This document shows, piece by piece, positions 6,007 through 64,000 of a stretch of 64,000 nt of DNA. Within the stretch, counting starts at the first letter, position 1; the number at the start of each line of letters is the position of its first letter. The notes under the pieces were generated by a model. That model was not told the origin of the DNA, made no database searches, and was given only the letters and a program-made list of their open reading frames with translations. This DNA comes from Patescibacteria group bacterium. Lineage in GTDB: Bacteria > Patescibacteriota > Patescibacteriia > Veblenbacterales > UBA10138. Both the position numbers and the translations under genes were made by a program. Location of the stretch: assembly GCA_018817715.1 (NCBI GenBank), contig JAHITT010000006.1:11147-75146 (forward strand), given 5' to 3'.

Positions 6007-6816
6007 ATGGATCTTTCAATAATTATTTTAAATTACAAAACTGGTGGCTTGGTTCGTCAGTGTTTAAGGGGTGTAATTGAGGCGGAGCTAAAATTAGATT
6101 ATGAAATTTTATTAGTGGATAATCACTCTCAAGATGATAGTTTGTCTTGGGTACAGGATAATTATCCAACGGTTAGAACAATAAGTTTACCTGTTAATCG
6201 GGGATATTCAGCTGGTAATAATGAGGGTATTAGGCGAGCCAAAGGAAAATATTTGCTCATTTTAAATCCAGATGTCACTATTTTTGCCGGCAGTTTAGAA
6301 AGGTTGGTAGCTTTTATGGAAAATAATCCAACAGTCGGTTTAGCTGGGCCAAGATTAAACAATCCCGATGGTAGTTTGCAGTATTCCGCTTATAGTTTTC
6401 CTAATTTTTGGTTACCTTTAATCAGACGAACCTGGTTGCGGCATTTGGGTTGGTTTAAACCCTTATTAAGGAAATATCAGTTAATGGATTGGTCTCATCA
6501 GGATAATCAGCCGGTTGATTGGTTATTAGGGGCTTGTTTAATTGCTCGAGCAGCCGCTGTGGAGCAAGTGGGTCTGCTTGATGAAAGATTTTTTCTTTAT
6601 GTGGAAGACACGGATTGGTGCCGACGTTTTTGGCAAAAAGGTTGGCAGGTTTATTATGCAGCTGATGTGGAGTTAGTTCATTTTCATGAACGTTTATCAG
6701 CGCAGGCTAATTTTGGCGCTCTTTTTAAAAAAATAACTTGGATTCATATAGCTTCCTGGTTTAAGTATTTTTTTAAATGGAGGATGAGATATCAAGACAA
6801 ATTAGACAGATTTTAA
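6007..6816 (+). CDS. glycosyltransferase family 2
   Basis: LSIIILNYKT...LLVDNHSQDDS, LILNPDV and DEDFFLYVEDTDWCRR, a classic GT2 (rhamnosyltransferase-like) motif set. Confidence 0.75.
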   Translation: MDLSIIILNYKTGGLVRQCLRGVIEAELKLDYEILLVDNHSQDDSLSWVQDNYPTVRTISLPVNRGYSAGNNEGIRRAKGKYLLILNPDVTIFAGSLERLVAFMENNPTVGLAGPRLNNPDGSLQYSAYSFPNFWLPLIRRTWLRHLGWFKPLLRKYQLMDWSHQDNQPVDWLLGACLIARAAAVEQVGLLDERFFLYVEDTDWCRRFWQKGWQVYYAADVELVHFHERLSAQANFGALFKKITWIHIASWFKYFFKWRMRYQDKLDRF

Positions 6817-41536: not shown

Positions 41537-41541
41537 TATTT

Positions 41542-41936
41542 GCCAAACATATTCTATAAGCCGAATTCTGTATCCCGCGAACGCGGGACGATAGTTATCT
41601 ATCTAGATCGCTTTTCGCAAAGCGACTCAAGCTACCAACCCGCTCCCGCCAAGGCGGGAGCCTATTTGGTATTGCACCGAGTAGAGTTTGCCTAGCCTTT
41701 ATTGTCGCCAATAAAGCTGGTGAGCTTTTACCTCACCGTTTCACCCATCACTCCCGCCAAAAGGCGGGGGCTGGTTTGTTTTCTGTTGCACTTGTCCTGC
41801 TAATCAGGTTAAAAACTGATTAACGGTTCCTGTTAGGAATTACTCTTCCCTAAAGACGGGAACGCTATGGTGTTCGGACTTTCCTCTCCTTACCCTTATA
41901 AAGAGTAAAGGAGCAACTATCCGAATAAGCTTGGCC
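41542..41936 (-). ncRNA. rnpB: RNase P RNA (bacterial type A)
   Basis: The minus strand contains GAGGAAAGTCCGAAC (P4 5' strand) and CAACAGAAAACAAACC. It also contains GGGTGAAACGGTGAGGTAAAAGCTCACCAGC (P10.1/P11 universally conserved block) and ACAGAATTCGGCTTAT (P4 3' strand). A P1 helix is formed by GCCAAGCTTATTC/GAATATGTTTGGC. About 395 nt. Confidence 0.8.
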
Positions 41937-57915: not shown

Positions 57916-58424
57916 TTGAAAACTAAAATATCAGTTTTTATAGCTTCCGGCTTGGGTGTGGGTTTTATTCCTTTGGCTCCAGGAACTTTTGGCAGTATTT
58001 TAGCTTTACCAATCTGCCATTACGCTTTGCAAATATCCCAAAACAACTGGTTTTACTATCCTTTAATAATCATTGCTATTTATATACTTGGTTATTTAAG
58101 TATAGAGCCAGCCAGAATTTTCCTAGGCACTAGAAAAATTCTTACGGGGAGGAAGTGGAGTATGACCAAAAAGAGATTATTATAGATGAAATTTTGGGTA
58201 TGCTGGTTGCTTTTGCCCCTTTATTAAAAGTAAAACCGCATAACTATCTTTTGTCAGCTATTATACTGCTTATTCTGTTCCGTATTTTTGATATATTAAA
58301 ACCCTGGGGAATAAACAGAATTGATGCCGGTAAAACACCGCACCATATTTTGCTGGATGATTACGTAGCCGGCTTATATAGCGCCGGTTGCTATATCCTA
58401 ATAAACTTAATGTTTCCAATATAA
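57916..58424 (+). pseudogene. pgpA: phosphatidylglycerophosphatase A (PgpA) split by a frameshift into two ORFs
   Basis: ORF1 (57916-58185) carries the PgpA N-terminal SGLGVGFIPLAPGTFGS motif. ORF2 (58155-58424) carries the C-terminal DEILGM...FRIFDILKPWGI...DDYVAGLYS. Together about 170 aa, the PgpA length. The frames switch near 58150-58185. Confidence 0.55.
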
Positions 58425-58429
58425 CCAAA

Positions 58430-58459
58430 AGCCCCGCTTATATTAAATAAAGCGGGGCT
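58430..58459 (+). terminator. hairpin terminator after pgpA
   Basis: AGCCCCGCTT-(10 nt)-AAGCGGGGCT 10 bp stem. The downstream T-tract is weak (GAATTATTATATA). Confidence 0.4.
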
Positions 58460-58576
58460 GAATTATTATATAGCAATATCTTGACCTTTAAGCTAACAAA
58501 ATCTAGAATAATACAGCCAGTATTAATATTGGGTAGCCAGTTTAATTTACAATTTATAGAGTTTCGTATTTCCAGC

Positions 58577-58647
58577 TGGGGGATCGTCTAATGGTAGGAC
58601 TCAGGCCTTTGAAGCCTGCTATGATGGTTCGAATCCATCTCCCCCAG
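58577..58647 (+). tRNA. tRNA-Gln (anticodon UUG)
   Basis: TGGGGGA acceptor, anticodon arm CAGGC-CTTTGAA-GCCTG, 4 nt variable loop, T-arm GATGG-TTCGAAT-CCATC, 3' acceptor TCCCCCA plus discriminator G. CCA not encoded. A plausible TTGACC/TAGAAT promoter lies about 90 nt upstream. Confidence 0.8.
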
Positions 58648-58696
58648 CTGGAAATAGGAGATATAATACTTAGGACTTCCCGCCTTGGCGGGACTA

Positions 58697-58723
58697 ATGA
58701 TGGTTCGAATCCATCTCCCCCAG
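58697..58723 (+). repeat. exact 27 bp duplicate of the tRNA-Gln 3' end (att-like remnant)
   Basis: ATGATGGTTCGAATCCATCTCCCCCAG is identical to 58621-58647. It is preceded by a degenerate anticodon-arm-like CCCGCCTTGGCGGG. Confidence 0.7.
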
Positions 58724-58754
58724 AGATAAAAAAGTAATGGACTTATCCGTTGCT
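58724..58754 (+). repeat. 31 bp direct repeat copy 1 (AGATAAAAAAGTAATGGACTTATCCGTTGCT)
   Basis: 30/31 identical to 60537-60567. Both copies are immediately preceded by CAG, and the similarity extends weakly for about 30 more bp (GGTATAT box). Confidence 0.65.
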
Positions 58755-58871
58755 TTTTTATCTTTTTATGGTATATGATAGATTCTAAGGGCGCGAGAAA
58801 AAGCGAACAGATGTAGTTTTGATACACACCGCCCAGGTGTCCGATTCGCCAACTGGCGAAGGAGTGAAGGA

Positions 58872-58888
58872 GAATCCATCTCCTCCAG
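58872..58888 (+). repeat. third copy of the tRNA-Gln 3'-end core (16/17 match)
   Basis: GAATCCATCTCCTCCAG versus GAATCCATCTCCCCCAG. Confidence 0.5.
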
Positions 58889-58960
58889 CCAGTCTGGACA
58901 CCGTACCTATGACCAGGACGGGTCTTCAGGTGCTCTTTGAATTATTAAGAGGTCTATAAC

Positions 58961-60418
58961 ATGGCAAAGATTAGTGACATATATCATTTAAATAAAACAC
59001 AGCGCGAGTTGGATTTTGTAAACATAAATATAGACAGAGACTTTCCTGTATATCTAAATCCATTCATTTTTTCCGCGCGTCCTGATCCATTTTCCATTGA
59101 TGCAATTCGAACAATTAGCGGATTTTTTCAATTTAATCTTGAGCTGATTAGGAATGGACAGATTGACCAAGCACGCGCCAACTTCCAACATTTAAATGAA
59201 CCAAACGAGACATGTCTTGGAATGTCTAGAAGGAGTCCTCGAGGGCGTGGTGTCGGAGAAGAAAATGCAGATGATTTATTCGATAGCATCTCCACAAGTA
59301 GAGCAGTGGCGTCAGGGCTAGTTGAGCACCTCGAAGACACGGCAATATTTATTGAGGGCATTGGCAAGGACAAGGTTTCAGATATGACTACCAATATTAT
59401 TCGTGCAAACCTCATTGCGTACACTCAGGCGCAATGCGCATTGCATGGGATTCCTATGACCACCGATGTTCCTTCGGGTTTTTTCTGGGACGCCACTAAC
59501 CGCAGATGGGAGCAAGTACACACAGAAATGTTGGTAGTAAATTATAAGAAAATTTTGCTGGTACCCAAAGCGGTAGTTTCTTATGTAAAGGAATTTAATC
59601 ATGGAAAATATCATCAGCACTACGCTCTTGAATTTCTCCAGGATGACCACTTGAGGAGAAATACGCCACTTGTTCAGACTACCCATAATAAAGACGGTTC
59701 CGTTAGACGTCGTTTCGTGACAAAGAAAGACCTTATTCAGCGCGAGTTAACTTCCAATAAAGAAGAACTAATCGACTTCACTAGGCGTCATCCAGAAGTT
59801 TTTAATAATTTTCGAACCGGTGCAGCATCACAGGTATTTCCAATGAATGATTCGGAGCTTGAATCTATTGATGTTAATCAGCTCATAAATCATCTCATTG
59901 CAAGACTGGGGACGATTAAGAGTGGAGATGCCACAGCATCTGCTTACCACACCCTGATGGTAGGTATTCTCGAATTTATATTCTATCCAAATCTCATTAA
60001 CCCCGTTAAAGAATTAGAGATTAATCAGGGAAGAAAAAGGATAGACATTGCTTTTGATAACGGCGCTCCTTCTGACGGGTTTTTCTACAGACTGCAACAT
60101 GCGTTTAGTATACCTTGTCCATATATCTTTATTGAGTGCAAGAATTACTCAAAAGATATACGTAATCCTGAGCTAGATCAAATGGTCGGTAGATTTTCCC
60201 CAAATAGGGGCAGGTTTGGAATTATTGTCTGTCGAGACATTGACGATGAAGATGTTTTTCTTAAACGATGTGCTGATTCGTATAAGGATCAACACGGATT
60301 GATTATTCCACTCACTGATGCAGACTTGATCAATATCTTGAACCAGAAGAAAGCGGGCATTGAACATCCAGAAGATGAAATTTTGTCACAGAAAGCTAGG
60401 AGAGTAATGAACTCATAA
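58961..60418 (+). CDS. hypothetical protein with C-terminal PD-(D/E)xK nuclease-like motif, compositionally foreign (GC-richer)
   Basis: C-terminal GRKRIDIAFDNG...(about 20 aa)...YIFIECKNYSK matches the D...(D/E)xK restriction-endonuclease-fold pattern. Codon usage is visibly more G/C-rich than in neighbouring genes. Bracketed by the 31 bp direct repeats. Confidence 0.5.
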   Translation: MAKISDIYHLNKTQRELDFVNINIDRDFPVYLNPFIFSARPDPFSIDAIRTISGFFQFNLELIRNGQIDQARANFQHLNEPNETCLGMSRRSPRGRGVGEENADDLFDSISTSRAVASGLVEHLEDTAIFIEGIGKDKVSDMTTNIIRANLIAYTQAQCALHGIPMTTDVPSGFFWDATNRRWEQVHTEMLVVNYKKILLVPKAVVSYVKEFNHGKYHQHYALEFLQDDHLRRNTPLVQTTHNKDGSVRRRFVTKKDLIQRELTSNKEELIDFTRRHPEVFNNFRTGAASQVFPMNDSELESIDVNQLINHLIARLGTIKSGDATASAYHTLMVGILEFIFYPNLINPVKELEINQGRKRIDIAFDNGAPSDGFFYRLQHAFSIPCPYIFIECKNYSKDIRNPELDQMVGRFSPNRGRFGIIVCRDIDDEDVFLKRCADSYKDQHGLIIPLTDADLINILNQKKAGIEHPEDEILSQKARRVMNS

Positions 60419-60536
60419 TAGTGTCGCATTTGTCGCTTTTGGGCTCATTCCGAGGAGCGTCAAAATGATAGAATAAAAGTAGTCAGAAAAGCCTTGTGGG
60501 GCTTGATGGGTAAATTTACGAGACCGAGTCAGTCAG

Positions 60537-60567
60537 AGATAAAAAAGTAATAGACTTATCCGTTGCT
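60537..60567 (+). repeat. 31 bp direct repeat copy 2 (AGATAAAAAAGTAATAGACTTATCCGTTGCT)
   Basis: See copy 1. It lies 47 bp upstream of the ATPase gene start (RBS AAAGAGGT). Confidence 0.65.
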
Positions 60568-60613
60568 CTCTTATTTTTTAAGGTATATTATAAACTAAAG
60601 AGGTAGAAATTAT

Positions 60614-61861
60614 ATGATAAAAGTAAATCCATTTACACCTAACAGTCCTGTACACAAAGATATGTTTGCTGGGCGTAAATCTGAAATTGATGCTATAGAT
60701 AAGGCCTTATTACAAACTGCTCATGGAAACCCGACTCATTTATTACTTCTTGGAGAAAGAGGAATAGGTAAAACTTCATTACTAAACGCTGCTGATTTTT
60801 TTGCTAGAGGTGATGTGCTATGGGAAGCGGAAAGAAAACATAATTTTTTAGTATCTAGAGTTAGTTTGAATGAAAATATAACACTAGTAGACCTAGCTAT
60901 TAGTTTAAAAAACTCTATAGAAAGGGAACTCGACAAAGAATACCCCCAAATAGCACTAATTAAAAAGGCTTGGAACTTTTTAAGTCGTTTTGAGGCGGTT
61001 GGAATTTCTTATAAAAAAGACGAGTCCAATAAAAACAACGCTCAAATTATCCAAGATTTTATATATTCTTTGTCTGATACACTAAAATTAATACAAAATA
61101 AAAGTCTATCTGTAAAAGACAAAAAAGATGGATTAGTGATACTGATAGACGAAGCAGATAAGGCTTCAAAAGAACTATTTATAGGATCTTTTTTAAAAAA
61201 TTTAACAGAAACACTAGTTAGGGAAAGTAATAATAATATACTTTTTATTGTAAGTGGTTTACCAAACACAAGAAATATACTATCTGACAGCCATGAATCT
61301 TCTTTACGCTTATTTCAGGAATTTGATCTTGGTCCACTTTCTTCAGAAGAAACATCTCAAGTTATTAATAACGGCTTAAAAGAATCAAAAAAAACATCCA
61401 ATATAGATACCGTTATTAATAAAGACGCCTTAATTAGTATATATGCCTATTCAGAAGGATATCCTCATTTTGTTCAACAAATAGGCTATTCTGTTTTTGA
61501 GGCAGATACAGATAATATTATATCAATAGAAGATGTCAAAAAAGGTGTTTTTATGAACCACGGGGCGTTAGAACTTATAGGAGATAGATATTATGTTAAG
61601 CCTTTTTACAAAGATATAAACGTAGAATCACAAAGAGAAATTTTAACGATAATGGCAGAAAAATGGAATGATTGGATTAAAAAAACAGATATACAAAAAA
61701 ATTTTTCAGGTAAAAAAACAGCTTTAAATAACGGTTTAAGAGCGCTAAAAGAAAAAGGGATAATTATTCCAAGAGAAGGTTATAATGGGCAGTACAGGCT
61801 ACAATGGGCAAGCTTTGCTTTTTGGATAAAAAACCATAAAAAAACAGAGAGAAGAAATTAA
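60614..61861 (+). CDS. AAA+/STAND-like P-loop ATPase (Arch_ATPase/AAA_16-like) with C-terminal winged-helix-like tail
   Basis: FAGRKSEIDAIDKAL...LLLLGERGIGKTSLL (Walker A), hhhhDE Walker B VILIDEADK, and the C-terminal ...NNGLRALKEKGIIIPREGYNGQYRL. Very AT-rich codon usage. Confidence 0.6.
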   Translation: MIKVNPFTPNSPVHKDMFAGRKSEIDAIDKALLQTAHGNPTHLLLLGERGIGKTSLLNAADFFARGDVLWEAERKHNFLVSRVSLNENITLVDLAISLKNSIERELDKEYPQIALIKKAWNFLSRFEAVGISYKKDESNKNNAQIIQDFIYSLSDTLKLIQNKSLSVKDKKDGLVILIDEADKASKELFIGSFLKNLTETLVRESNNNILFIVSGLPNTRNILSDSHESSLRLFQEFDLGPLSSEETSQVINNGLKESKKTSNIDTVINKDALISIYAYSEGYPHFVQQIGYSVFEADTDNIISIEDVKKGVFMNHGALELIGDRYYVKPFYKDINVESQREILTIMAEKWNDWIKKTDIQKNFSGKKTALNNGLRALKEKGIIIPREGYNGQYRLQWASFAFWIKNHKKTERRN

Positions 61862-61878
61862 TATAAAAAATAATTTTT

Positions 61879-62271
61879 ATGAAAACAATATTAGTAGACG
61901 CTGTAGATGCGTTTGTGGTAGAGGAGCGGGGGAGTTTTAAGGTTTTTCAAGATATGCATAATCTTTTGGAAACCTATCCCAATCCCAAAATCATTCTAAC
62001 TGGCGCCAATGATGAACAATATTTAAAATTCGGCCTGGATAAAATGCCTTATCCGGTTTTTACCTTAAAGCACAATCCCGAGAAAACCGACCCCAAATAC
62101 TTTGAAACTTTACTGCAAAGGTTTAATCTTAATAAAGACGAAGTTGTTTATTTTGAGCATAACCCCCAGGCGGTTAAAAGCGCTGAATCTGTTGGTCTAA
62201 AATCCTACTTTTACGACAGTGCCAAACAAGACCTTGTAGCGCTTAAGGAGTTTTTGGATAATAATATTTAA
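61879..62271 (+). CDS. hypothetical protein (possibly degenerate HAD-like)
   Basis: 130 aa. ILVDAVDAF N-terminus and C-terminal VYFEHNPQAVKSAESVGLKSYF loosely resemble HAD motifs I and IV. Weak. Confidence 0.3.
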   Translation: MKTILVDAVDAFVVEERGSFKVFQDMHNLLETYPNPKIILTGANDEQYLKFGLDKMPYPVFTLKHNPEKTDPKYFETLLQRFNLNKDEVVYFEHNPQAVKSAESVGLKSYFYDSAKQDLVALKEFLDNNI

Positions 62272-62275
62272 TTAG

Positions 62276-63049
62276 ATGAAACTAATTACCTTAAACACTT
62301 GGGGTGGGATTGTTTTTCAGCCTTTAATGGATTTTATTAAAAAACACTCGGTTAATACCGATATTTTTTGTTTTCAGGAAATGTTGTTTGGCCCTAAGCC
62401 CCAATTTACACCAGTAAACAAAGCTAGGGAAAATCTGTTTACAGAAATATCAGCCATTTTGCCCGATTTTGTTGCTTATAAACATATACCAGCCTCGGAT
62501 CATTTTGCTGGTGAAATAGTTAATTTTGGCACTGGCCAAGCTATTTTTGTTAAAAATACAATTAAAGTAATTAATAATGGGGCTTTTAAATGCTATGATA
62601 AAATGTTTTCTGAAATCGAAACACTGCAAAGGGATAGTGGTCGGGTTACAGGCAATGTTCAGCATATTGATTTGGAAATAGGTAATCAAATTTTTTCTAT
62701 TTTAAATTTTCATGGTCTATGGCAAAAGAATACGCATAAAGCCGATACAGCAGAAAGATTAAGGCAATCCGAAATAATAAAAACTTTTCTAAATAGTAAA
62801 AATAATAAAAAAATTCTCTGTGGGGATTTTAATTTAAAAGCCGACGGACAAAGTATAAAAATTTTAGAACAAGGCTTGGTTAATTTAGTAAAAAAGTATA
62901 ATGTCTTATCTACTCGCAGTAAATTTTATACTAAAGAAGAAAAAATGGCTGATTATATAATTGTTTCACCAGATATAGAGGTAAACAAATTTAAGGTTTT
63001 TTCCGACGACATTTCCGACCATTTACCTTTGTTAGTGGAATTTAAATAA
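62276..63049 (+). CDS. endonuclease/exonuclease/phosphatase (EEP) family protein
   Basis: LITLNTWGG, CFQE, ILCGDFNL and the C-terminal SDHLPLLVEF, the EEP catalytic motif set. Confidence 0.7.
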   Translation: MKLITLNTWGGIVFQPLMDFIKKHSVNTDIFCFQEMLFGPKPQFTPVNKARENLFTEISAILPDFVAYKHIPASDHFAGEIVNFGTGQAIFVKNTIKVINNGAFKCYDKMFSEIETLQRDSGRVTGNVQHIDLEIGNQIFSILNFHGLWQKNTHKADTAERLRQSEIIKTFLNSKNNKKILCGDFNLKADGQSIKILEQGLVNLVKKYNVLSTRSKFYTKEEKMADYIIVSPDIEVNKFKVFSDDISDHLPLLVEFK

Positions 63050-63054
63050 TAATT

Positions 63055-63537
63055 ATGAGTAATAATATTTATTTAAAAAAGATTTTAAAATTATATTATT
63101 TTTTTAAAAATCCTCTCTATAAGGTTTATTGTTTTATTTTTCGACCAAAATCCTTAGGAGTAAAAATAATAGTCGAAAACAATGGTAAACTATTAATGAC
63201 TAAATTAGGTTATGCCCATAAAAAATGGGTTTTTCCTGGTGGCGCGGTTAATAAAAAAGAAAATGCCGAACAAACAGCTGTTAGAGAATTAGAAGAGGAA
63301 ACCGGAATTAAAACCAATAAACTAATCGAAATAGGCGAATACACATCCGAAAGAAATTATAAGAAAAATATTGTAAAATGTTTTTATTTGCTTGCGGATT
63401 CTTCTTTTGTAAAAATAGACAATTTTGAGGTTATAGATTCAGGTTGGTATAACCCCCAAGAACTTCCCAAAGACTGCTCTGTATCTATTCCACAAATAAT
63501 AAAAATATATCAACAATATAAACTTAAGCAAAATTAA
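63055..63537 (+). CDS. Nudix hydrolase
   Basis: Nudix box GGAVNKKENAEQTAVRELEEETGI. Confidence 0.75.
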   Translation: MSNNIYLKKILKLYYFFKNPLYKVYCFIFRPKSLGVKIIVENNGKLLMTKLGYAHKKWVFPGGAVNKKENAEQTAVRELEEETGIKTNKLIEIGEYTSERNYKKNIVKCFYLLADSSFVKIDNFEVIDSGWYNPQELPKDCSVSIPQIIKIYQQYKLKQN

Positions 63538-63539
63538 TT

Positions 63540-64000
63540 ATGCTGGAATTTGGTATAAAACGGGAAAACGAAGAACGGCGGGACGGTGGTTGTGGTGTGG
63601 TGTTTAATCCAGCCAGCCAAAAATACGCCGTAGGGCAAGATTATGACGGCGGATTATTTAGGCTTTTTTCCGGCGGTGTTAGCGAGGGTGAAGGTATTGA
63701 GCAGGGTATTTTAAGAGAAGTTACCGAGGAAAGCGGCCTACATGATTTTTTATACATAGAAAAAATTTCCCAAGCCTTGGTGCGTTATCGTAACAGTCTT
63801 AAACAAGTAAACCGAGTCGGCTTGGCTACTTGTTTTTTAGTTGTTTTAAAATCAGCTGATTTATTAGACACTAAATTAGAAGAGCACGAAAAATTTAGTT
63901 TAACTTGGGCAACCGCCAATGAAATTATAAAAAACTGGGAACAAAGGAACCAAAATAAAGATTATGACCACTGGATTTATTTTTTAAAAAAGGCTGTAAA
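63540..64000 (+). CDS. Nudix hydrolase (3' end truncated by the window edge)
   Basis: Nudix box SGGVSEGEGIEQGILREVTEESGL. The ORF runs off the end of the window. Confidence 0.65.
   Translation, partial: MLEFGIKRENEERRDGGCGVVFNPASQKYAVGQDYDGGLFRLFSGGVSEGEGIEQGILREVTEESGLHDFLYIEKISQALVRYRNSLKQVNRVGLATCFLVVLKSADLLDTKLEEHEKFSLTWATANEIIKNWEQRNQNKDYDHWIYFLKKAV

Follow-up and report, generated by a model that had tools for sequence, protein, structure and literature searches.

Transfer RNA (tRNA) genes serve prophages and genomic islands as integration sites, where attL and attR are direct repeats of the 3' part of the tRNA and the crossover falls in the T-loop, in the anticodon loop, or at the 3' end; Reiter in 1989 and Williams in 2002 reportedly described tRNA genes in this role. 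Elements flanked by att sites that have no recombination module are termed cis-mobilizable elements (CIMEs). Fragments of tRNA genes have been attributed to element integration (PMC9897764), and in the tRNA-proximal island arrays of the Prochlorococcus tycheposons, one integration after another has shifted older elements further in (bioRxiv 10.1101/2020.12.28.424599). Tycheposons use tyrosine or, less often, large serine recombinases and carry defense cargo, and their islands contain scattered partial tRNAs and degraded elements (bioRxiv 10.1101/2020.12.28.424599). Here we describe a locus in a 64-kb window (the whole stretch of DNA that was analyzed, to which coordinates refer) from a Patescibacteria metagenome-assembled genome. 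A tRNA-Gln(UUG) gene is followed there by two partial copies of its own 3' end, which fits the attribution of such fragments to integration, and the locus is probably a tRNA-Gln-linked insertion hotspot with at least three layers. Loci of relatives are referred to by L numbers. The features of the array are as follows.

58577 to 58647, plus strand: copy 1, the intact tRNA-Gln(UUG) (ARAGORN; Rfam tRNA, 64.8 bits), with no CCA encoded
58648 to 58696, plus strand: 49-nt insert between copies 1 and 2, with a trailer that pairs with the leader, TAGGAC, and the hairpin CCCGC-CUUG-GCGGG
58697 to 58723, plus strand: copy 2, an exact 27-nt repeat of tRNA positions 47 to 73
58721 to 58785, plus strand: unit D, first copy of a 64-nt repeat, with a terminator-like 20-bp AT-rich hairpin and T-run and then GGTATATGATA
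58777 to 58891, plus strand: module Y, with the left motif GATAGATTCTAA, the stem GGGCG...CGCCC, the hairpin TTCGCC-AACT-GGCGAA, copy 3, and CCA
58872 to 58888, plus strand: copy 3, a 16/17 match to tRNA positions 57 to 73
58889 to 58901, plus strand: CCA and native trailer (CCAGTCTGGACAC), matching the L182 trailer CCAGTTAGGACA at 10 of 12 positions

Both ARAGORN and Rfam place tRNA-Gln(UUG) at 58577 to 58647 (the calls end at 58647 or 58648). The 27-mer ATGATGGTTCGAATCCATCTCCCCCAG, which comprises two bases of the variable loop, the T arm, the 3' strand of the acceptor, and G73, is present exactly twice, at 58621 to 58647 and at 58697 to 58723, and it had no match in 100 dinucleotide shuffles even with 3 mismatches tolerated. 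A preliminary description of the locus had reported this exact downstream duplicate, which holds (0 of 100 shuffles), and had put the spacing between the copies at 50 bp, where we count 49 nt. It had also reported a third match to the 17-nt core GAATCCATCTCCCCCAG, and we likewise find the core at 58872 to 58888 with one C-to-T mismatch (16/17); three core matches occurred in 0 of 100 shuffles. The repeat periods are 76 and 175 nt. An encoded CCA directly follows copy 3, and the intact gene and copy 2 have none. The tRNA-Gln 3' end plus trailer site reads GAATCCATCTCCCCCAGCCAGTYWGGACA. Neither copy 2 nor copy 3 is called as a tRNA by ARAGORN or by Rfam RF00005 at an E value of ≤1; copy 2 has its anticodon arm swapped for a tetraloop hairpin, and copy 3 consists of positions 57 to 76 only. 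Logan contig L002 (run SRR6514274), an independent assembly, is the same as the window over 5,417 nt with 0 mismatches, copies 2 and 3 included, and so the array is not the artifact of a single assembler. Logan contigs L001 and L002 overlap at window positions 58584 to 58613, where the graph breaks within the 5' half of tRNA-Gln. This suggests that several strains or species in the sample share tRNA-Gln with differing flanks, and population variation is maybe recoverable.

The gene order FtsE-FtsX-(pterin dehydratase)-tRNA-Gln is kept in 67 species-level Patescibacteria genomes. By FtsX identity, the closest relative that reaches the locus is L182/L183 (71% identical to the window), followed by L004 (65%), L006 (62%), L009 (61%), and L007/L010 (59%). 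L182 has the same upstream genes as the window and a single tRNA-Gln, 98.6% identical to that of the window and with CCA encoded; downstream of it, there is no partial copy, no hairpin stub of the kind described below as module X, no unit D, no module Y, and no GC-rich block. Window positions 58872 to 58900 (GAATCCATCTCCTCCAGCCAGTCTGGACA) match the tRNA end and trailer of L182 (GAATCCATCTCCCCCAGCCAGTTAGGACA) at 26 of 29 positions, with 10 of the 12 trailer bases identical. Because the trailer after copy 3 matches the native trailer of L182, copy 3 with its native flank is best read as the original tRNA 3' end, which would make 58648 to 58871 added DNA (the 49 nt and a 148-nt block, besides copy 2). 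L182/L183, with a single tRNA-Gln and then a trailer matching the sequence after copy 3, are thus the kind of empty site that the preliminary description had proposed to look for. That description had also considered that relatives might share the array together with identical downstream genes. We find instead that the gene content 3' of tRNA-Gln is different in each relative examined, and when 42 relatives were compared, 0 of the window's six downstream open reading frames (ORFs) clustered with their ORFs 3' of tRNA-Gln. The core that is conserved (PDDEXK_1, 252 aa, through Cupin_2) resumes ~8.6 kb past the tRNA in the window and 4.9 kb past it in L182, with unrelated genes between.

The 148-nt block (58724 to 58871) consists of unit D and the scaffold of module Y. 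Window positions 58697 to 58890 are collinear with L009 5059 to 5258, with 79% column identity. The order of segments in L009 is an intact tRNA-Gln 3' end, a terminator, and a GC-rich block that ends in a tRNA-Gln 3' end plus CCA, and by this collinearity copy 2 holds the position of the functional tRNA end in L009. Unit D is homologous to the terminator after tRNA-Gln in L009; a simple terminator scan did not call it. The block is common to the window and L009 and missing in the closer relative L182, which implies either independent gain or clean loss. The preliminary description gave decay of the inserted elements as one possibility. The DNA between the copies is not randomly decayed; its 49 and 148 nt are defined recurrent modules, and the 148-nt block is 79% identical to L009.

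The 49-nt insert and copy 2 together make up module X, which is a tRNA-Gln without its 5' third and without its anticodon loop. As reported earlier, copy 2 is fused to a hairpin: TAGGAC (58671 to 58676) and CCCGC-CUUG-GCGGG (58679 to 58692) both lie 5' of it. A module X of the same design, with CCCGC-UGUA-GCGGG, stands behind tRNA-Gln in L006, and X is missing in L182 and L009. Related hairpins (..GAC-GAAT-GTC..) lie inside the anticodon loop of a 5'-truncated copy in L018 (Gln) and L042 (Thr), and in L010, L059, and L060, hairpins are inserted at about G57/A58 of the T-loop in partial copies. The same 14-nt CUUG-tetraloop hairpin as that at 58679 to 58692, CUCCCGCCUUGGCGGGAG, is found at 41645 to 41658 within a bacterial RNase P RNA, class A (41541 to 41932, minus strand, 236.7 bits); these are the only two occurrences in 64 kb, where 0.01 are expected.

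Copies of tRNA tails are not confined to this locus. A same-strand copy of the tRNA's own 3' end within 600 nt downstream was found for 18 of 163 tRNAs (Gln, Thr, Gly, Arg, and Lys), compared with 1 of 163 for upstream or antisense copies, the 163 being the tRNAs of the fetched loci, which are mostly anchored on the tRNA-Gln gene neighborhood. The partial copies at L004 3541 to 3570, L018 11400 to 11430, and L079 3382 to 3401 carry a tRNA-Gln allele (T stem or acceptor) unlike that of the adjacent intact gene, which would mean that in these three loci either the fragment or the gene came from another lineage.

We defined module Y as a provisional family with three elements: the reverse complement of the T-loop after the tRNA end, a GC-rich GGGC..GCCC scaffold, and a tail of tRNA positions ~57 to 76. 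Window positions 58777 to 58891 have all three. In the window, GATAGATTCTAA stands 53 nt past the last base of copy 2 and is the reverse complement of the T-loop and T-stem 3' strand at all but 2 of 12 positions; the module's tail reads GAATCCATCTCCTCCAGCCA. The architecture is present in 11 of the tRNA-tail-copy cases, starting 38 to 85 nt past the tRNA end (46 to 55 nt in nine), and Y modules were located in nine contigs of Patescibacteria, where they follow tRNAs for Gln, Gly, Thr, and Lys, as well as next to one provirus. The layout is the left motif, GAA, a GGGCNN...NNGCCC stem around hairpins, and tRNA positions ~57 to 76. The left motif differs with the tRNA, being ATTCGAA for Gln, AATCGAA for Gly, GATTGAA and GATCGAA for two Thr genes, and TATCGAA for Lys. 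In 11 modules with five T-loop sequences, this motif reads as the cognate T-loop in reverse complement, the 7-nt loop being exact in 9 of 11 and having one mismatch in 2 of 11. We considered that Y might be a later element lodged within the T-loop of an attR that was already there; this is rejected because the left motif follows the reverse complement, and not the direct sequence, even for non-palindromic T-loops (Gly TTCGATT, Thr TTCAATC and TTCGATC, and Lys TTCGATA).

In L054, all three tRNA genes within 16 kb (Thr, Gly, and Gln) precede paralogous Y modules, each ending in the tRNA's own 3' end (L054 1796 to 1899 and 2934 to 3043, minus strand, and 6529 to 6637, plus strand; 103 to 120 bits with covariance model R1). 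The tRNA-Gln of L054 additionally precedes a second partial copy. Compensatory changes are found at 7 of 30 predicted pairs among the three L054 paralogues and at 13 of 27 pairs between L061-Gly and L063-Gln, and they are located in the closing helix, P1, and inner hairpins. The window's Y segment folds better than shuffles do (z of −3.2 and −4.8). It has AT-rich sequence in place of the inner GC hairpins of L009 and looks partly decayed. Model R1, built from the three L054 paralogues, recovered just those three copies in 1.05 Mb and is too narrow, and a regular-expression scan for closing helices was uninformative, with 602 matches versus 988 in a reversed-sequence control.

Rfam has no match to module Y (scanned at an E value of ≤1 over 54 to 64 kb, at gathering thresholds over the entire window, and at an E value of ≤5 in four relatives); these scans gave tRNAs and RNase P only, and weak microRNA and small-RNA matches are to the AT-rich hairpin. 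The sequence GGAUUCGAAGGG resembles the 5' motif of transfer-messenger RNA (tmRNA), GGAUUCGAC(A)GGG, and Y shares with tmRNA and other tRNA-like RNAs a tRNA-like 3' end with CCA. In contrast to tmRNA, Y lacks both a 5' acceptor strand and a reading frame for a tag, and its tail follows the isotype of the neighboring tRNA; neither ARAGORN nor Rfam finds a tmRNA in the window, L009, L012, L054, or L063. We conclude that Y is neither a tmRNA nor a permuted tmRNA. Other candidate origins were also rejected. An origin by reverse transcription, considered because of the CCA on copies, is contradicted by the CCA being on the copy and not the gene in 4 cases and the reverse in 3. IS200/IS605-type or IS110-type elements (guide or bridge RNA) are a poor match in geometry, and the neighborhood has no gene of either type. 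Nor is there support for Y as what is left of the small GIY-YIG gene often found 5' of tRNA-Gln, as tblastn against 58401 to 59000 gave only noise. The Y and X modules appear to be a variant of which neither Rfam nor the literature that we searched gave a description.

Compared with tRNA att scars, the locus is similar in having same-strand partial 3' copies after an intact tRNA, with boundaries at T-loop position 57 or just before the T stem, and in that the most downstream copy is the original end, still next to its native flank, a relative has an empty site, and the downstream genes vary. It differs in that the DNA between the repeats is just 49 and 148 nt, gene-less, and without an integrase, and in that a foreign cassette lies past copy 3. 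To our knowledge, att sites do not carry an inverted copy of the T-loop as module Y does. Like tycheposons, the locus is a layered tRNA-proximal island with partial tRNAs in a streamlined genome; unlike them, it is in another phylum, its window has no recombinase, replication module, or hallmark gene, and its scars are miniature structured modules. Because there is no hallmark gene in the window, membership among the tycheposons cannot be claimed. CIMEs and MITEs (miniature transposable elements with inverted repeats) resemble Y in being short, protein-less, flanked by direct repeats, multi-copy (three in 16 kb of L054), and patchy, with an inverted-repeat closing stem. In contrast, the repeat and the inverted motif of Y copy the target tRNA and change with isotype.

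The array is followed by a cassette encoding a DUF8370 protein and then by the rest of a variable island, the first features of which are as follows.

58902 to 60533, plus strand: DUF8370 cassette of 1.6 kb, with a 5' untranslated region (UTR), an ORF at 58961 to 60418 (485 aa), and a 115-nt tail
60490 to 60536, plus strand: possible fourth degenerate tRNA-like remnant (AGCCTTGTGGGGCT TGATGG ... CAG), weak and not significant alone
60534 to 60597, plus strand: unit J, second copy of the 64-nt repeat, with a terminator-like hairpin and the −10-like TATATTATAAA, just 5' of the ATPase gene
60614 to 61861, plus strand: AAA_16/STAND-like ATPase (Pfam), first gene of the rest of the variable island

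The cassette is foreign in composition, with a GC content of 0.39 to 0.44 versus 0.28 to 0.38 in its flanks, a shift that spans 58.5 to 60.5 kb. Units D and J are about 90 to 91% identical (90% over 60 nt; E value of 1e-16), and this repeat brackets the 148-nt block and the cassette. The possible fourth remnant aligns with copy 2 only in TGATGG and the terminal CAG. The 485-aa protein belongs to PF28123 (DUF8370), and its residues 3 to 224 match PADLOC PDC-M36A (PDLC04597; E value of 2e-43) as a component A homologue, which makes it a candidate defense protein. A sequence search of the PDB gave no relative of this protein, a Bacillus homologue with 51% identity is labeled "restriction endonuclease type IV Mrr domain-containing" in one source, and a literature search gave no paper mentioning PDC-M36 or DUF8370. 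The genes that neighbor DUF8370 vary by locus and include a methylase, MutH, a recombinase, and an ATPase.

The cassette family is associated with tRNA-Gln and with large serine recombinases. Homologues that are 70 to 78% identical to the window's protein lie 82 to 100 nt past tRNA-Gln in L070/L071, L081, and L082 and 639 nt past it in L078/L079, and the DUF8370 gene of L073 follows a tRNA 3' end; distant homologues (55% identity or less) have no tRNA-Gln link. In L079, the 78%-identical gene is in a 3-kb island of 37 to 46% GC that abuts tRNA-Gln in a host of 55 to 65% GC. A large serine recombinase gene (Resolvase, Recombinase, and zinc-ribbon domains) adjoins DUF8370 in L073 and L081 and is 2 kb away in L070, the DUF8370 genes of these three loci being 70 to 75% identical to the window's. 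The 5' UTR of the window (CGTACCTATGACCAGGACGGGTC, from about 58902) is homologous to that of L081, and it starts 13 nt past G73 of copy 3 in the window and 14 nt past a genuine tRNA-Gln in L081. All left junctions read (C/G)AG and then, across the junction, C(A/C); no circular or empty form of the cassette was recovered. Based on the UTR homology and the constant junctions, the cassette is joined to copy 3 as its relatives are joined to the real tRNA-Gln. An integration hotspot with tRNA 3'-end repeats, as the preliminary description had it, is upheld by the empty site and the variable cargo. The geometry is not the classic att one of tyrosine integrases; the recombinase seen next to the homologous cassettes is a large serine recombinase, joined about 13 nt past the tRNA end.

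Two proviruses have junctions at similar sequences. A strict scan for Y in viral contigs gave no match, and a looser scan gave 10 matches, of which only that in L166 is a real Y-like module. The L166/L171 module is at the end of a 53.8-kb provirus, has the GCC-GGT-GGC hairpin loop of the L054 copies, and ends in GAATCCATCTTCCCCAACCA, which is the tRNA-Gln 3' end. The large serine recombinase gene of L171 diverges from eight relatives after ...GCCCCACCAA and before GC, a point at which the relatives have an attP-like inverted repeat, and 57 nt with a hairpin separate this prophage junction from the Y-like module. The module thus appears to be the host flank beside a serine-recombinase prophage that is joined at a tRNA-Gln-end-like sequence. 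In L181, the provirus junction is CCG joined to GAATCC...CCA, the same T-loop boundary. The attP-like inverted repeat (GTTCGGATTTGAAAGCG...CAAATCCGAAC) lies at about 3370 to 3470 in L171 to L179, within the 3' end of the viral large serine recombinase gene, so integration replaces the C terminus of the protein, as seen in L171. The window's locus is similar to serine-integrase prophages and islands of the phiC31/Bxb1 type in having DUF8370 homologues beside Resolvase, Recombinase, and zinc-ribbon genes, in its short constant junctions, and in the attP-like repeat of L171 in a recombinase 3' end. It is dissimilar in that the recombinase gene is absent from the window and in its long direct repeats, which are not expected from this class of enzyme.

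The tRNA-Gln gene itself is flanked by two further features.

58481 to 58509, plus strand: predicted promoter-like TTGACC-17-TAGAAT (consensus scan)
58564 to 58659, plus strand: tRNA-Gln with complementary leader and trailer (inverted repeat I21)

The region from 58477 to 58522 is 85% identical to that 5' of tRNA-Gln in L182. The leader and trailer extend the acceptor stem, with 58564 to 58583 pairing with 58640 to 58659 (20 nt, 95% complementary), and the pairing covaries, being CACTGC/GCAGTG in L007/L010 versus CCAGC/GCTGG in the window. Across the genomes examined for it (window, L007, L010, L018, L006, and L079), the extended stem is 10 to 13 bp, with TCTCTGC/GCAGAGA as a further variant, and it may be a pre-tRNA processing signal in the clade. 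It is missing where module Y directly follows the tRNA (L009 and L063). This stem, the D/J repeat, the CCA after copy 3, and the DUF8370 cargo past copy 3 were absent from the preliminary description.

The insertion hotspot at tRNA-Gln was probably built up as follows. The ancestral state, still found in L182, would be promoter, tRNA-Gln, CCA, and the trailer GTTAGGACA. As layer 1, a protein-less block of ~148 nt (terminator-like D and the GC-rich Y scaffold) would have inserted into the tRNA 3' region, flanked by a 17-nt direct repeat from T-loop position 57 to the 3' end. This would have pushed the original end and native trailer downstream as copy 3, leaving the gene-side end that is now copy 2. 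Layer 2 would have added 76 nt (49 unique plus the 27-nt repeat), which would give the present functional 3' end and leader-pairing trailer 5' of copy 2 and would leave copy 2 as the 5'-truncated, anticodon-less tRNA-like stub of module X. As layer 3, the 1.6-kb DUF8370/PDC-M36A-like cassette would have joined 13 nt past the old tRNA end, its recombinase being since lost from the window or acting in trans. We infer that layer 1 preceded layer 2 and that the two small inserts came by site-specific recombination, or by some other repeat-generating insertion, with the enzyme in trans; the cassette was presumably delivered by a large serine recombinase.

Several observations weigh against this scheme. 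No recombinase, whether intact or as a remnant, was found in the window or in the next 6.4 kb by tblastn with three large serine recombinases and a crude serine/tyrosine motif search, which agrees with the statement in the preliminary description that the window has no integrase; likewise, no integrase-like sequence was seen by eye in the first genes 3' of tRNA-Gln in ten relatives. No enzyme is tied to the 49-nt or 148-nt inserts in any locus. Large serine recombinases normally leave no long direct repeats, and this class of enzyme therefore does not account for the repeats of 27, 17, and 64 nt. Pairing between the host leader and the trailer of the intact tRNA, which covaries in L007/L010, is awkward if the trailer is foreign. 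The compensatory changes in Y and the closing helix that tracks the cognate T-loop point to selection on a fold, not to a passive scar. In addition, the presence of CCA on copies gives no consistent direction (4 versus 3 cases), the scheme accounts neither for the cassette's right end nor for the source of J, and relatedness was judged on one protein, FtsX.

The evidence for a selected fold bears directly on the strongest alternative, which we consider unlikely, that selection maintains copies 2 and 3 within structured RNAs that have a function, or within sites of folded single-stranded DNA, and that they are not inert scars. In this case, Y would correspond to a ~115-nt RNA in which the closing helix sequesters the 3' half of the T-loop and leaves the acceptor 3' strand and CCA as a free tail. 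Enzymes or elements that recognize tRNA 3' ends could meet this tail as a decoy, as a guide, or as a landing pad, which would be compatible with a mobile origin. The left motif that tracks the cognate T-loop in 11 modules, the compensatory changes (7/30 and 13/27 pairs), the folding of the window segment relative to shuffles (z of −3.2 and −4.8), and the 79% identity of Y between the window and L009 when FtsX is only 61% identical are all consistent with such a function. So are the use of the Y tail by the DUF8370 cassette as others use a real tRNA end and the prophage junction 57 nt 5' of a Y module. However, the covariation comes from very few sequences, and related sequences can mimic covariation. 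The closest relative has no Y, and the spread of Y among relatives is patchy, which indicates that it is dispensable; AT-rich sequence replaces the inner GC hairpins in the window's Y, which suggests decay; no Rfam family matches Y; and the downstream genes are unrelated from locus to locus.

It is also conceivable, although quite improbable, that no mobile element was involved, and that replication slippage or unequal crossing-over duplicated the tRNA 3' region and terminator in tandem, with subsequent decay and a separate arrival of the DUF8370 gene. Repeat units do include a terminator (D/J here, L068 and L047 elsewhere), there is no recombinase, and the periods are short (76 and 175 nt). 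Yet the DNA between the repeats is not tRNA-derived and contains a module that is conserved in other genomes and behind other isotypes, L054 has three paralogous Y modules behind three different tRNAs, and the fragments in L004, L018, and L079 carry a tRNA-Gln allele different from that of the adjacent gene and so are not local copies. The mis-joining of reads from related strains sharing tRNA-Gln into false tandem copies is hardly credible, since, although Logan contigs break within tRNA-Gln (the end of L001 and the start of L002 are in 58584 to 58613, with branching of the graph), L002 runs without a mismatch over 5,417 nt that include the cassette and both partial copies, and homologous arrangements are found in independent metagenomes (L009 and L006).

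We tentatively raise a more specific possibility, which we would not call the likelier outcome: that Y and the related X-type stubs are undescribed protein-less structured mini-elements of ~150 nt that insert at tRNA 3' ends, using more than one isotype, both in Patescibacteria and in one or more other hosts. On insertion, each would double the stretch from the T-loop to CCA, and the inverted cognate T-loop that it carries would close a conserved fold. Islands that bring a recombinase, the DUF8370 cassette among them, might then use the additional site as a landing pad or as a decoy attB, which would shield the real tRNA and seed defense islands in genomes otherwise devoid of mobile-element machinery.

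Downstream of the cassette, the variable island extends past the window to about 67.3 kb in window coordinates. Window positions 60614 to 64000 and L002 2031 to 8600 encode a run of small hydrolases, with the AAA_16 ATPase, HAD-like proteins, an endonuclease/exonuclease/phosphatase protein, at least five NUDIX proteins, and an RNase T-like protein. The run is missing from L182 and may be a variable island of nucleotide-metabolizing or defense-like genes. ATPase homologues elsewhere are in restriction-modification or defense islands; they were tried as a route to an empty site and rejected, as these defense islands are unrelated. One of these, L160 1188 to 8981 (Wildermuthbacteria), has the ATPase homologue with Vsr, HNH, two cytosine methylases, and a LexA-like repressor, and the block has gone in between the genes for ribosomal proteins S10 and L3, where an island would not usually be expected. 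Upstream of tRNA-Gln, the PgpA (phosphatidylglycerophosphatase A) gene of the window (57916 to 58424) is split into two overlapping 89-aa ORFs (57916 to 58185 and 58155 to 58424) that cover PF04608 positions 1 to 57 and 66 to 140, which is a frameshift or pseudogene; it is split also in Logan contig L001. An ~81-aa GIY-YIG-type ORF is usually just 5' of tRNA-Gln in L005, L013, L019, L034, and L064. In L025 (2745 to 3273), the GIY-YIG ORF is between an intact tRNA-Gln and a second copy with a destroyed 5' acceptor strand, a tRNA duplication around a nuclease gene.

The phenomenon is of a known kind, a tRNA hotspot, while module Y appears to belong to an undescribed recurring family. If the modules are only scars, the locus is an ordinary, well-documented example of that known phenomenon; the downstream tail copies can in addition mislead tRNA annotation. 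Patescibacteria have tiny genomes and few recognizable mobile elements, and how they acquire defense genes is poorly understood. This locus offers a concrete acquisition route, being empty in one relative, holding other cargo elsewhere, and containing a candidate defense cassette that recurs at tRNA-Gln near large serine recombinases. If the small modules are mobile or functional, they would be a new class of tRNA-linked element and would explain the copies of their own tails at about one in nine tRNA genes in the fetched loci.

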